Source: an uncultured Chloroflexia bacterium
GTDB lineage: Bacteria; Chloroflexota; Limnocylindria; Limnocylindrales; CSP1-4
Length of the DNA: 64,000 nucleotides
NCBI GenBank assembly: GCA_963755115.1
Contig: CAVWIK010000003.1
Location: 544,706-608,705, forward strand
Direction: 5' to 3'
Below are positions 1 through 6,000 of the stretch, in pieces (within the stretch, counting starts at the first letter, position 1; every line of letters starts with the position of its first letter). Position numbers: made by a program.

Positions 1-3000
1 GCAGGTGTCGCCAGCCGGCCTGACCGCCGGCCATCGACCCGCCCGACCCGCGTACGCCCGCCGACCGCCCGATGGCGGTCCCCGGGCCACCCTCACCGCC
101 CTGGCGCCAACCGACGCCAGCCCGTCGAACCACCGGAGCCCACGAAGCCCATGCCGAAGTCCTATGCGGACCTCCTGAAGGAGGCCCGCTCCCAGATCCG
201 AGAAGTCACCCCACAGGAGGTCGACGCCCTCCCCCAGGGTGCCGCCACGGTCGTCGACGTCCGCGAGGCGTCCGAGTGGGACCAGGGCCACGTGCCCGGG
301 GCTGCGCACGTCTCGAAGAGCTACATCGAGCAGCAGATCGAAGGCGTCGTGCCCGATCGCGACGCGCCGGTGATCCTGTACTGCGCCGGCGGCGTCCGCT
401 CGCTCTTCGCCGCGCAGACCCTCGCCGACATGGGCTACACCGACGTCGCCTCGATGTCCGGCGGCTTCCAGGGCTGGAAGAGCGCCGGCTTCGAGTTCGA
501 GACGCCCGTCGTCCTCACCGCTGAGCAGAAGCAGCGCTACAGCCGCCATCTGCTGATCCCCGAGGTCGGCTCGGCCGGCCAGGCCCGCCTCCTCGGCTCG
601 AAGGCGCTCCTCATCGGGGCCGGTGGGCTGGGCTCGCCCGCCGCGCTCTACCTGGCGGCAGCGGGCGTCGGGACGATCGGCATCGTCGACTTCGACATCG
701 TCGACCTCAGCAACCTCCAGCGCCAGATCATCCACACCACCGACCGCGTGGGCGAGCGGAAGGTCGAGTCGGCGCGACGGTCGATCAACGCGCTCAACCC
801 GGAGGTCAAGGTCGTCGAGCACGAGGAGATGCTCGTCGCGGCGAACGTCGAACGGATCATCACCGGGTACGACGTCATCCTCGACGGGACCGACACCTTC
901 GAGACCCGCTACATCGTCAACGACGCGGCGGTCGCGGCCGGGATCCCGGTCATCCATGCCTCGGTCTTCCGGTTCGAGGGCCAGCTCACGACGTTCATCC
1001 CGTACCAGGGGCCGTGCTATCGGTGCCTCTATCCGACCCCGCCGCCGCCCGAGCTCGCGCCCGGCTGCTCGGTCGCGGGCGTGCTCGGCGTCGTGCCCGG
1101 CATCCTCGGCCTCCTCCAGGCCAATGAGGCCCTGAAGGTGCTGCTCGGGATCGGTAACACGCTGGCCGGCCGGCTGCTCCTGTTCGATGCCCTCGAGACC
1201 GAGTTCACCGAGCTGAAGCTCCGCCGCGACCCGGAGTGCCCCGTGTGCTCCGACGCAGCGGTCGAGGCCCGCAAGGCCGGCCACCCGCTGGCGGTCGCCA
1301 ACGTCGGCGGCGACACCCCGTTCGTGATGACCACGTCCGGCCTGGCCGGCACGGTCTCGCCCGACGCGCGCGCATGAGCACGGTCTACATCCCGGCCGTG
1401 CTCCGGCCCGCGGTCGGTGGGGCGAAGTCGCTCGACCTCGAAGGGGGCTCGATCCGGGCCGTCGTCGACGCGCTCGTGGCGCGCCATCCGTCGCTCGGGT
1501 CGCAGCTCCTGAGCGAGGACGGCGATCTGAACCGGTTCGTCAACGTGTACGTCAACGGCCAGGACGTTCGCTATCTCGACGGGCTGGACACGCCGGTCGC
1601 GCCGTCCGACGAGGTCCGGCTCCTGCCGGCGATGGCCGGGGGCTGACCGATGGCCGTCCCCTGGCGGCTCGACGACGCCGAACACGATCATTCGCACGCC
1701 CACGAGGCGCTCGCGCCCCACGGCGGACGATACGGCGACATCCTCGAGGCGATCGGGCACACCCCGCTCGTCGAGATCCCGCGGATGAGCCCCAACCCGG
1801 CGGTCACGATCCTGGCCAAGCTCGAGATGGTCAATCCGACCGGCTCGGTCAAGGACCGCGTGGCCAAGTACCTCATCGAGGACCTCGAGAAGCGCGGGCT
1901 GCTCCACGCCGACTCGATCATCCTCGAGCCGACGTCGGGCAACACGGGTATCGCGCTCGCGATGATCGGCCGGCGGAAGGGCTATCGCGTCGCGCTCGTC
2001 ATGCCCGACAACGTCACGAACGAGCGGCGCCAGATGGCGGCGCTCTTCGGCGCGGAGGTCATCGATTCGCCGGGCGCGCTCGGCTCGAACGGCGCGATCG
2101 CGCTGGCCAAGCATCTCGTCTCCAAGGACGAGCGGTTCGTGATGCCCTACCAGTACGGCAACCCGGCGAACACGCTTGCCCACTACGAGACGACCGGCCC
2201 GGAGATCCTCGCCGACTGCCCCGAGATCGACGTGTTCGTGGCCGGCATGGGCACGTCCGGGACGTTGATGGGCGTGTCGCGCTTCCTGCATGAACACAAG
2301 CCCGGTGTCCGGGTCGTCGCCGCCGAGCCGCTCCCCGGCGAGAACGTGCAGGGCCTGCGGTCCCTGGAGGAGGGCTTCGTCCCGGAGATCTTCGAGCCCG
2401 GCCTGATCGACGCGAAGTACCTGGTCTCGAACGCGGACGCCATCTCCGCCCTGCGCGACCTCGTCTTCCGCGAGGGCATCTTCGGCGGCCCGTCATGCGG
2501 CGCGGTGCTCGTGGCCGCCGCCCGTGAGGCCCAGCAGATGCGCGAGGGCACGATCGTCGCCCTGCTGCCCGACGGCGGCTGGAAGTACCTCTCCGCCGGC
2601 ACGTTCACGATGAACCTCGACGAGATGGAAGACGCGCTCGAGGGCGGCGTCAACTGGTGGTGAGCCCGCACCCCGGGCCCGCGGCGGCCCAGCTCCCGGC
2701 GGACATCCGCGCCGCACTCATCGACCATGCCCGCGCCGAGTACCCGAACGAGGCCTGTGGCCTCATCGTCGGCGACGCCCCGGCCGCCGATGGCGGCCAC
2801 GCCCTGCGCTTCGAGCCCACGGTGAACAAGGCGGCCTCGCCGTTCCGCTACGAGATCGCCCCCGAGGACCTGCTCCGCCTGACGATCGCGACCGACGATG
2901 CCGACGAGACCTTCTGGGGGATCGTCCACTCGCACACCCACACCCCCGCGCGCCCGTCCCCGACCGACATCGGGCTGGCGTTGTACCCCGACGCGCTGTA

Positions 3001-6000
3001 CGTGCTGGTGTCGCTGAGCCCGGACGAGGCCGATCCCGCGACCGGCGCACCCGGGGTCCGGGCCTGGCGGATCGTCGACGGAGAGGTCCACGAGGTGGCG
3101 CTGGCGTGACGCCGCGGGCGGGCGCGGCCGTGGCCCTCGGGCTGGGCGCGGTCGCCGTGATCGCGGCGACGGCGTTCGGGTCGTCGGCCGGATTCCTCGA
3201 CGCGCTCGTCCATCCGCCGCCGCTCCTGCGGGCGGCGCTCGTGGGCGCGTGTGCCGCCGTCGCGGTGATCCTGCTGTCGCGGAGCCTCGAGAAGCTCGCC
3301 GACGGCACGTCCGACGTCCCGGGGCTCATCCGCGGCGTGCGCCTCGTCTTCCTCGCGATCGCCGCGGTGTCGGCGGCGGCCGGGTGGGCGCTCGGTCATC
3401 CCCTCCCGCTCCTCGTCGCGCTCGTCATCGCCGGGATCGACGTCGTCGAGACCTCGTTCCTGCTACTCGTCGTCGGTCCGGGCCGCCGCTGACCGTCGCC
3501 CCGGCGACCCCGCCGAGCGACGGTGCGGCCGCACGGCGCGAGTACCATGGCCGCCGCGAACCCCGGTGGCCTGGCGATCGCGTCGCGATCGACCTGCGGA
3601 CCGGGACCGCGAGGATGGGACCGCCCTCCGATGGACCTGTACGCGACCAAGGCCGCGACGCTCGCACGGCTCGATCCGCTGGTCGGCCGGCTCGCGGCCG
3701 CGAACGTCTCGCCCGATCAGCTGACGCTCGCCGCCATCCCGGTCGCCGTGATCGCCGGCGCGTGCCTGCTCGCCTCGACGCTGTCGCCGGCCTGGCTCCT
3801 TGCGATCCCCGTCCTGGCGGTCCTCCGCCTGGTCCTCAACCTCCTCGACGGTGCCCTCGCGCGGCGGACCGGCCGCATCCACCCCCGGGGCGAGGTGTTC
3901 AACGAGGTCGGGGACCGGATCGCCGACATCGCGTTCCTCGCGCCGGTCGCGTTCCTGCCCGGGGCGTCCGCGACCGTGGTCCTGCTCGGCGTCATCGGCG
4001 CGATCCTCGCGAGCTACGTGGGCATCGTCGCGAAGGCCGCCGGCGGCGAGCGGATCTACCGTGGCGTGCTCTCCAAGCCCGGACGGATGCTGCTCATCTC
4101 GGTCTGCTCGATCGCCGTCATCCTCGTCGGCACCGATGTCTGGGCCGTCTTCGGTGTGCTGCTCCTGGCCGGAACCGCGCTGACGCTCCTGGAGCGGATC
4201 GTCGTCGCCATCCGACGGCTGCCCTGATCGCGTGGGGTCCGTCTCGCCGCTCGACGCTGCGACCATCGTCCTCATCGCGCTGCCGGCCATCGGGCTGATC
4301 GGCGTGGCGGTCTACGCCGCGACGCACCGGGCCGCTGCGGGCGGGCTGTCCCCGAGGCTGCTGCTGGAGCGATGGGGGAGCTACGCCGGCCTCGCGCTGA
4401 TCGCGATCGTCGTCGCGCGGACCGGGGTGCCGGGCATGGCCGTCCTCGTGGCGGTCCTCGGGACGCTCGGCCTGGTCGAATGGAGCGGGCTGTTCGACCT
4501 CCCGGTCCACCACCGCGTCAGCCTGGTGATCGCGAACCTCGTGATCGTCGGGGCGGTGGCCGTCGCGGGGACACAGGCGGCTCCCTGGCTCATCGGCGCA
4601 CTGGTCTTCGTCGGGATCGCCTGGCCGGTCGTGCGGGCGGACACCGGCCGAGCCGTGCGCGATCTCGGGGTCGCCGCTGTCGGCCTGATCATGGTCACGG
4701 TCCTGCTCGTCCACGCCGTCGCCCTGACCGTCGAGCACGGCGAGGATGGCACGGTCCTGTTCATCGCCCTGGCCGTCGCGTGCGCGACCTCGGACGTCGG
4801 GGCGTTCCTCGTCGGCCGGCGGTTCGGCCGCACGCCGCTCGCCCCGCGGCTCTCGCCGAGCAAGACCCGGGCCGGGCTGGTCGGCAACCTCCTCGGCGCG
4901 ATGCTCGGGCTGGCGTTGTTCGCGCCGGCCCTGCTCCCGGTGGTCGGCGGCCCGTTCCTGGTCCTGCTCGTCGCGATCGTGGCGGCGGGCGCGGTCTGGG
5001 GCGATCTCCTCGAGTCGGCCGTCAAGCGCGAGGCGGGCGTGAAGGATGCAGGAAGCTGGCTGCCCGGCTTCGGCGGGATCCTCGACCGGATCGACTCGCT
5101 GCTCGTCACGGTCGCCCTGGCCTACTGGGCCGTCCGGCTGCTGGACGTGATCCCGTGAGCCGGCCCGGTGGCGACCACTGGCAGTTCTCCCGCCCGGCGA
5201 TCGTCGCGCGCGAGGCGACGGCGCGGCTCGTGGGGCCGGTCCTCGCCTGGTTCCTCCACGGCCCGAAGGCCGTCGGGCGGCATTGGCTCGAGGGGCTCGA
5301 CGGTCCGGTGATCATCTGCCCGACCCACGCGAGCCATTTCGACTTCTCGGCCCTGCGGCTGGCGCTCGGCCCGCGCTACCGCCGGCGGCTCGCCCCGGCC
5401 GTGGCGGCCGACTATTTCGCGACGAGCCGGCGACGCTGGCTGTTCGCGGCGTGGCTGGGGGCGTTCCCGTTCAACCGGAGCGGGCACGGGGGCGCCGAGT
5501 CGTTCGTCGCCGCCGAGGCCCTGCTCGCGGACGGGTGGAGCGTGCTCCTCTTCCCCGAGGGCACCCGCAGCCGGACCGGGCGGATCGGTCCCTTCCATCC
5601 GGGCGCCGGCCTGCTGGCGGTCCGGACCGGGCGACCGGTCCTGCCCGTGCGGATCGTGGGGATCCATGCCGTGCTGCCGCCGGGGGCTCGCCGGCCCCAC
5701 CGGGCGGCGGTCGAGGTCCGGTTCGGCGAGGTGCTGCGGGCCGAGCCGGGGGAGGATGCGCGGGCGTTCACGACGCGTCTCGAGGCGGCGGTCCACGCGC
5801 TATGAGGGTCCGATGCCGCTCCGCCGCCTGAGCCCGCGCGAGTACGTCGTCAACCTCGTCGCCGTGACGGCGCTGTGGCCCGTCTACGGTCGCCGCGAAT
5901 GGGCTGACAGGGCCGGCCTGGACCGGTTCGCGTTCCAGCGGGCGGTCGAGATGGCGACCCACGCCGGGGCGACGACGCCGATGTACCGGGAGCGCTACCG

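Follow-up and report, generated by a model that had tools for sequence, protein, structure and literature searches.

A compact group of four genes near the start of a 64,000-nucleotide (nt) stretch of DNA from an uncultured Chloroflexia bacterium (order Limnocylindrales in GTDB) appears to encode a system for making cysteine with a thiocarboxylated sulfur carrier protein. The stretch, referred to here as the window, comes from contig CAVWIK010000003.1 of assembly GCA_963755115.1 (positions 544,706 to 608,705 of the forward strand), and positions given below are those of the whole window. The group spans 151–3109, with all four genes on the + strand. The first (151–1377) encodes an E1-like adenylyltransferase/sulfurtransferase of 408 amino acids (aa), in which a rhodanese domain is followed by a ThiF/MoeB domain and which belongs to the NF006444 (PRK08762) family. 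It is followed by a cysO-like gene for a sulfur carrier of 90 aa with a ThiS/MoaD fold (1374–1646; Pfam ThiS, E = 6e-15), a cysM-like gene for a cysteine synthase of 337 aa that depends on pyridoxal phosphate (PLP) and is of the O-phosphoserine sulfhydrylase type (1650–2663; Pfam PALP, E = 6e-70), and a mec-like gene for a JAMM/MPN+ zinc metallopeptidase of 150 aa (2657–3109; Pfam Prok-JAB PF14464, E = 3.7e-23).

The open reading frames (ORFs), as read from the sequence, are tightly coupled. The cysO ATG at 1374 overlaps the E1 stop codon (TGA, 1375–1377) within the sequence ATGA, a junction of −4 nt; cysM starts 3 nt past the cysO stop (+3 nt); and mec begins at 2657 with a GTG, before cysM has ended at its stop codon (2661–2663; −7 nt). 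The initial annotation of this DNA had described a single coupled operon with an ATGA overlap at 1374 and a GTG-TGA overlap at 2657, and its coordinates and junctions agree with those found here. A consensus scan of bases 1–6000 found no promoter-like or + strand terminator-like sites inside the cluster. No tRNA or Rfam family was detected in the whole 64 kb, and these scans, together with the promoter and terminator scan, revealed no RNA or signal associated with the operon.

Domain order and active sites of the E1-like enzyme

Pfam places the rhodanese domain of the E1 at residues 21–111 (nt 211–483; PF00581, E = 4.5e-21) and the ThiF/MoeB adenylation domain at residues 130–365 (nt 538–1245; PF00899, E = 5.6e-84), both in one chain and with E-values far beyond chance. 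This order is the opposite of that in MoeZ of Mycobacterium tuberculosis, MOCS3 and Uba4, as the initial annotation had recognized for the first two. The other features that it listed for the enzyme, an active-site YCAGGVRS, a CPVC zinc site and a C-terminal tail of about 40 residues, are likewise all present in the sequence. The YCAGGVRS loop of the rhodanese domain holds Cys78 (codon 382–384) at the head of the six-residue loop C-A-G-G-V-R. The ThiF domain has a GAGGLGS nucleotide loop and two zinc motifs, CYRC at residues 289–292 (nt 1015–1026) and CPVC at residues 363–366 (nt 1237–1248), and Cys306 (nt 1066–1068) occupies the conserved crossover-loop position in the alignment of homologues.

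Conservation of these residues was assessed in an alignment of 38 diverse, full-length rhodanese-first representatives that are 39–52% identical to the window E1. The catalytic cysteine, Cys78, survives this closer comparison, being invariant together with Asp36 and Arg38, and Arg83 is nearly invariant. The zinc cysteines C289, C292 and C363 are also invariant, and C306 is kept in at least 90% of the sequences. C366, the partner of C363 in the second motif, is present in the window protein and invariant in 17 closer relatives.

An AlphaFold2 model of the single chain, built on the same alignment, has a predicted local distance difference test score (pLDDT) of 92 and a predicted template modelling score (pTM) of 0.85. 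The modelled ThiF domain superposes on Escherichia coli ThiF and MoeB structures with template modelling (TM) scores of 0.95–0.97 and also superposes on Uba4 (6YUB), and no structure in the PDB was found to cover both domains of the model (query TM at most 0.58). Like the window enzyme, Uba4 and MOCS3 carry an adenylation domain and a catalytic rhodanese on one chain and conserve the crossover-loop cysteine, and their ubiquitin-like substrate, Urm1, ends in Gly-Gly and is thiocarboxylated. Apart from the domain order, the linker also differs: between the Pfam domain cores it has a median of 18 aa in rhodanese-first proteins (interquartile range 17–19, n = 49), as it does approximately in the window E1, compared with a median of 34 aa in ThiF-first bacterial proteins (interquartile range 29–39).

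About 40 residues follow the ThiF domain. This tail (residues ~370–408, nt 1258–1374) is lineage-specific and predicted to be disordered; disorder in the model is confined to it, with pLDDT below 50 for residues 389–408. At 43 aa it exceeds all other C-terminal extensions of the rhodanese-first representatives compared (n = 49, median 12 aa), and its conservation, with the motif PF[VL][ML]TT[ST]GLAG, is limited to close relatives within the Limnocylindrales. Many other members of the family, including those at loci L005 and L023, end in a short tail with the motif DY..xC, which the window E1 lacks. This motif resembles the DYEAFC segment found after the second CXXC of MOCS3.

No stop codon and no start codon occurs in the E1 frame across bases 1–150, and in formal terms the ORF therefore runs open to the edge of the window. 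These bases, when translated, are rich in Pro and Arg and have no similarity to the regions upstream of related loci. The initial annotation had allowed that the true start might lie downstream of the rhodanese region. Instead, more than 100 close homologues are exactly 408 aa long and the N-termini of the 38 distant homologues align at the same place, making the predicted start at ATG151 secure. The related suspicion, that two adjacent genes have been read as one through an assembly or annotation error, gains something from the origin of the DNA in an uncultured Limnocylindrales-like genome and from the presence of only 150 nt ahead of the start codon. It has next to no probability when set against an uninterrupted frame, a database protein identical to the 408-aa window E1, the many homologues of the same length, the confident two-domain model and the narrow range of linker lengths. 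The fusion is also collinear in 80/80 genome loci, which include the complete genomes of Conexibacter sp. S30A1 and Corallococcus exercitus. A single frame and this recurrence mean that the fusion is neither two genes nor the product of a frameshift, and an artefact of either kind was rejected.

Identity of the carrier, synthase and peptidase

The last codons of the carrier gene are GGG GGC TGA, and so the protein ends directly in Gly-Gly (AMAGG-stop), as had been claimed for it. Its closest solved relative is CysO of M. tuberculosis (3DWG_C, E = 8.3e-20, 74 bits), followed by CysO of Amycolatopsis (4N6E_B, E = 8e-19); matches to a MoaD-type protein (E = 5e-07) and to a SAMP1 structure (E = 7e-07) are far behind. 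The ends of cysO-like genes were also inspected in related loci (including L002, L005, L008, L016, L023, L026, L039 and L074). Nine of 35 such ORFs end directly in Gly-Gly, and in about 19 of the 35 there are 1–4 further residues, as in AMAGGR, MAGGAR, AGGSGT and AGGDDR. In organisms of the latter kind the JAMM peptidase may also trim the carrier, a step that the window CysO, from its predicted C-terminus, would not need.

The synthase is closest among solved structures to CysM of M. tuberculosis (3DKI/3DWG; 325 bits, E = 4e-96), an O-phosphoserine sulfhydrylase that, like mycobacterial CysO, has been characterized in both structure and biochemistry, and CysK-type enzymes reach at most 234 bits, the score of CysK1. 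Lys68, the PLP lysine (codon 1851–1853), lies in NPTGSVKDR, which aligns with NPTGSIKDR of the mycobacterial enzyme, and the alignment continues through the C-terminal tail to residue 333 of 337. Arg237 (codon 2358–2360), within GLRSLEEGF, aligns with Arg220 in the mycobacterial ALRNMDEGF. Arg220 is the residue that binds the phosphate of O-phosphoserine, and since its equivalent is kept, O-phosphoserine is most likely the substrate of the window enzyme. The protein scores below the cut-offs of the models for E. coli-type CysM (282.6 vs 394.2 bits for TIGR01138 and 281 vs 413 bits for NF008735). Residues 1–23 (positions 1650–1718) form an N-terminal extension rich in His and acidic residues, DDAEHDHSHAHE, that has no counterpart in M. 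tuberculosis CysM; there is no alternative in-frame start before the region of homology.

The peptidase is a standard prokaryotic JAMM protein with 2KKS and 2KCQ as its solved relatives. Its JAMM motif, HSHTHTPARPSPTD, preceded by NEACG, has the HxHx7Sx2D pattern intact in translation, with H91, H93, S101 and D104 (motif nt 2927–2968) in addition to Glu32.

A ThiS-like carrier and a JAMM peptidase next to an E1 can also suggest a ubiquitin-like conjugation system of the SAMP/UbaA/desampylase type, in which the carrier would modify lysines of target proteins and the peptidase would take it off again. Among NCBIfam models the carrier indeed scores best with SAMP1, marginally above the cut-off (63.6 bits vs 60), and the desampylase and SAMP-activating UbaA models match the JAMM protein and the E1 at 69.4 and 328.5 bits. 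The last two scores are below their cut-offs of 130 and 450, however, and the carrier is closer to solved CysO than to SAMP1 by the E-values given above. A CysM-type synthase embedded between carrier and peptidase, in an arrangement that is conserved, and a catalytic rhodanese fused to the E1, which indicates sulfur transfer, make conjugation very unlikely. Assignment of carrier, synthase and peptidase to a thiocarboxylate cysteine pathway is, by contrast, well supported by homology, in agreement with the CysO/CysM/Mec-type module that had been proposed for them.

All four protein functions are shared with M. tuberculosis, in the form of CysO (Rv1335), CysM (Rv1336), Mec+ (Rv1334) and MoeZ/MoeZR (Rv3206c), as are a carrier ending directly in Gly-Gly and a CysM with the phosphate-binding Arg and the C-terminal tail. 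The arrangement differs, since in the window the order is E1-cysO-cysM-mec with the E1 gene inside the operon, whereas the mycobacterial order is mec-cysO-cysM with moeZ elsewhere in the genome. The chemistry of the CysO/CysM/Mec/MoeZ pathway has been described (PMC3227635).

The rhodanese-first family and its genomic settings

The window E1 matches the NCBIfam model NF006444 (PRK08762), an equivalog named "molybdopterin-synthase adenylyltransferase MoeB", with 550.8 bits (cut-off 449). The alignment is collinear, pairing residues 6–371 with model positions 4–372 of 387, and the protein has the domain order, catalytic Cys and zinc cysteines of the family. The MoeZ model NF005902 gives 363 bits against a cut-off of 647, in two separate matching stretches. 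MoeZ/MoeZR proteins mostly lack the second CXXC, and NYRD replaces the first (PMC3227635). In the window protein the rhodanese is N-terminal and both CYRC and CPVC are intact, so that it differs from M. tuberculosis MoeZ in these traits as well as in score. Because both CXXC motifs are kept, the enzyme is to be classed as MoeB-type and not MoeZ-type, and the name moeZ, used in the initial annotation, is on its motifs and profile scores a misnomer.

The same annotation had also implied that the reversed order is rare, and this does not hold. The order is the defining architecture of NF006444. A search without a profile across 1.84 billion cluster representatives (clustered at 50% identity) returned 63,880 matches, and domain order was typed in the best 149 of them with separate rhodanese and ThiF queries: about 70 are rhodanese-first, 53 are ThiF-first and 26 have ThiF only. 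When a single genome of each GTDB species was scanned, more than 600 matches were obtained; the best 80 loci were examined, and all 80 are collinear with the rhodanese first. They include Chloroflexota (Limnocylindria, Ktedonobacteria, Thermomicrobium and Chlorohelix), Actinomycetota (Solirubrobacterales, Gaiellales and Acidimicrobiia, with the complete Conexibacter genome mentioned above), Myxococcota (with the complete Corallococcus genome), Binatia, Nitrospinota, Thermodesulfobacteriota and proteobacterial metagenome-assembled genomes (MAGs). NCBI records label such proteins MoeB. Rhodanese-first is thus a widespread architecture, curated in databases, and not a rare one. In a neighbour-joining tree of 125 ThiF domains, which is star-like, rhodanese-first and ThiF-first sequences are interleaved, and the tree is not read as favouring either one fusion event or several. 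One contig of a Solirubrobacterales MAG (locus L070, 3822–9143) has two copies of the rhodanese-first E1 separated by about 3.7 kb, from either duplication or an assembly artefact.

In these 80 species-representative loci a cysO-like gene lies just downstream of the E1 in 35/80, the 4-nt overlap between E1 and cysO recurs in at least 10, and the full set of E1, cysO, cysM and mec is present in 21/80. The four-gene set was found across two phyla. In loci with no CysO match, no credible small ORF ending in Gly-Gly was found within 2.5 kb of the E1. A second sample, anchored on CysM, consisted of 80 metagenomic loci (L081–L160) that encode the closest homologues of the window CysM. Here a rhodanese-first E1 is directly upstream of cysO-cysM in 11 loci and a ThiF-first fusion in none, and so all complete rhodanese-fused E1s adjoining cysO-cysM are rhodanese-first (11/11). 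A further 11 of the 80 have ThiF with no detected rhodanese, although a contig edge cuts the gene in seven of them, and about 22 are arranged mec-cysO-cysM, as in mycobacteria, and have no E1 close by. Of the forms in this sample, it is the rhodanese-first E1 that accompanies the operon. Two other arrangements were seen: L090 has mec, a ThiF domain that lacks a rhodanese partner, cysO and cysM, and in L095 (11–3391, a metagenomic contig) the order cysM-cysO-ThiF-cysO-cysM places a carrier/synthase pair on either side of the E1.

An operon with this gene content is itself already published. Iyer, Burroughs and Aravind (2006) listed, as class 4c in their Table 1, a ThiS/MoaD-like protein, an E1-rhodanese fusion, a JAB peptidase and a cysteine synthase, reported in Chloroflexus, Rubrobacter, Solibacter, Salinibacter, Pseudomonas aeruginosa and Rhodopseudomonas (PMC1779556). 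The content of class 4c is identical to that of the window operon; the table is silent on domain order, and the text describes only carboxy-terminal rhodanese fusions. The PdtF/PdtG/PdtH and quinolobactin siderophore systems have the same core of E1-rhodanese, JAB peptidase and ThiS-like carrier, but they feed small-molecule thiocarboxylates, lack a cysteine synthase and have an E1 rhodanese described as C-terminal (PMC1779556).

Beyond mec, a 128-aa hydrophobic membrane ORF without a Pfam match (3106–3492) shares 4 nt with the end of mec, its GTG start and the mec stop together reading GTGA, and it is followed by genes for a CDP-alcohol phosphatidyltransferase (3523–4227), CdsA (4232–5158) and a PlsC-like ORF that ends at 5805. 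Whether this ORF and the phospholipid genes belong to the operon was considered and rejected, since no related locus has any of them in synteny, and the four genes form the conserved unit. The window as a whole has a G + C content of 72%, and the rest of it was covered with a crude gene caller based on codon position (5300–64000, with 34.7–37.5 kb and 40.8–45.5 kb left unresolved). It contains genes for DUF3419, an alpha/beta hydrolase, CbiQ, a nucleoside hydrolase, PurK, DUF6498, an HtrA-like protease, an aldehyde dehydrogenase, a GMC oxidoreductase, an ankyrin-repeat protein (28535–29233), a glutamine synthetase, an amino-acid permease, an AT3-SGNH acyltransferase, a flavin reductase and a PaaA/PaaC pair (50.5–53.1 kb).

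Cysteine synthesis as the probable function

Taken together, these findings favour one reading, to which we give a probability of roughly 0.82. The four genes would form a single translationally coupled operon for protein-thiocarboxylate cysteine synthesis like that of CysO/CysM/Mec in M. tuberculosis, with its own rhodanese-first, MoeB-type E1 encoded in the operon and with a domain order that is normal for such E1s.

Some points pull the other way. The SAMP1 score of the carrier has been described, and the proposal that CysM uses O-phosphoserine draws on one residue and overall similarity. The E1 stands alone in about 43/80 of the genome loci, mostly in Myxococcota and Acidimicrobiia, and for this reason the NF006444 family, taken whole, is not specific to cysteine synthesis; carriers encoded beyond the 64 kb could also be substrates of the window E1. 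Full-text literature searching found no biochemistry or structure of an E1 with an N-terminal rhodanese, and the published accounts that it found describe C-terminal rhodanese fusions only. The initial annotation had raised the possibility that the order would prove common among characterized MoeZ proteins; it is common in sequence space, but no characterized rhodanese-first protein was found. The architecture appears to be abundant and known to databases yet unstudied experimentally.

Several of the same points bear on whether the enzyme is primarily the molybdopterin-synthase adenylyltransferase of the cell, acting on a MoaD encoded elsewhere, with its position beside cysO-cysM-mec either incidental or reflecting shared use. 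The family and its relatives in NCBI records are named MoeB, both CXXC motifs are of the MoeB type, more than half of the family members have no adjacent carrier gene, and MoeZR of M. tuberculosis acts on MoaD as well as on CysO (PMC3227635). The family label, however, is based on homology, with no experiment found behind it. In addition, at least 10 loci keep the ATGA overlap with cysO, members of two phyla have the four-gene set, and no molybdenum cofactor gene, including MoaD and MoaE, was recognized among the ~40 ORFs scanned in the window as described above; thiamin and sulfate-assimilation genes were likewise not found among them. Because its translational coupling to the E1 is conserved, CysO is taken to be at least one substrate of the enzyme, and a primary role as MoeB is improbable. 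The cysteine-synthesis operon remains the preferred reading, and the name MoeB, which implies molybdenum cofactor biosynthesis, is probably wrong for members embedded in such operons. The context in the window is cysO-cysM-mec, as it is in roughly one quarter to two-fifths of the loci sampled.

On the operon reading, a sequence of reactions can be proposed from homology. The ThiF domain would bind ATP and CysO and adenylate the C-terminal Gly90 of the carrier. A persulfide on Cys78, supplied by a cysteine desulfurase or another sulfane donor, would attack the CysO acyl-adenylate, and the resulting acyl-disulfide would be resolved to the thiocarboxylate, CysO-COSH, in a step to which an external reductant or the conserved Cys306 of the crossover loop may contribute. 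CysM would form the PLP-aminoacrylate, most likely from O-phosphoserine, and CysO-COSH would add to it. An S-to-N acyl shift would follow, and Mec, the JAMM peptidase, would then hydrolyse the CysO-Cys amide, freeing cysteine and regenerating CysO.

The initial annotation had suggested that the reversed fusion may alter the relay of persulfide sulfur to the CysO-adenylate. A more far-reaching suggestion is that rhodanese-first E1s are a mechanistically distinct class of dedicated, operon-encoded CysO activators, in which the short linker would fix the persulfide Cys relative to the adenylation site and impose a transfer geometry other than that of the mobile rhodanese in Uba4 and MOCS3. We regard this as speculative and rather doubtful. 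If it were true, sulfur transfer would occur within one protomer or across the dimer, and the MoeB annotation would be wrong for a large share of the family.

The points made here about annotation, lineage and architecture are modest and would not surprise a specialist. Recognition that the family called MoeB by NCBI is often tied to cysteine synthesis is a useful correction to annotation. The locus extends the thiocarboxylate cysteine route of the M. tuberculosis type into the Limnocylindria of the Chloroflexota, and both there and in Actinomycetota of the Thermoleophilia type the operon brings its own activating enzyme. A soluble rhodanese-first member of the family would also offer an easy comparison with Uba4 and MOCS3 on how persulfide sulfur is delivered to an acyl-adenylate.

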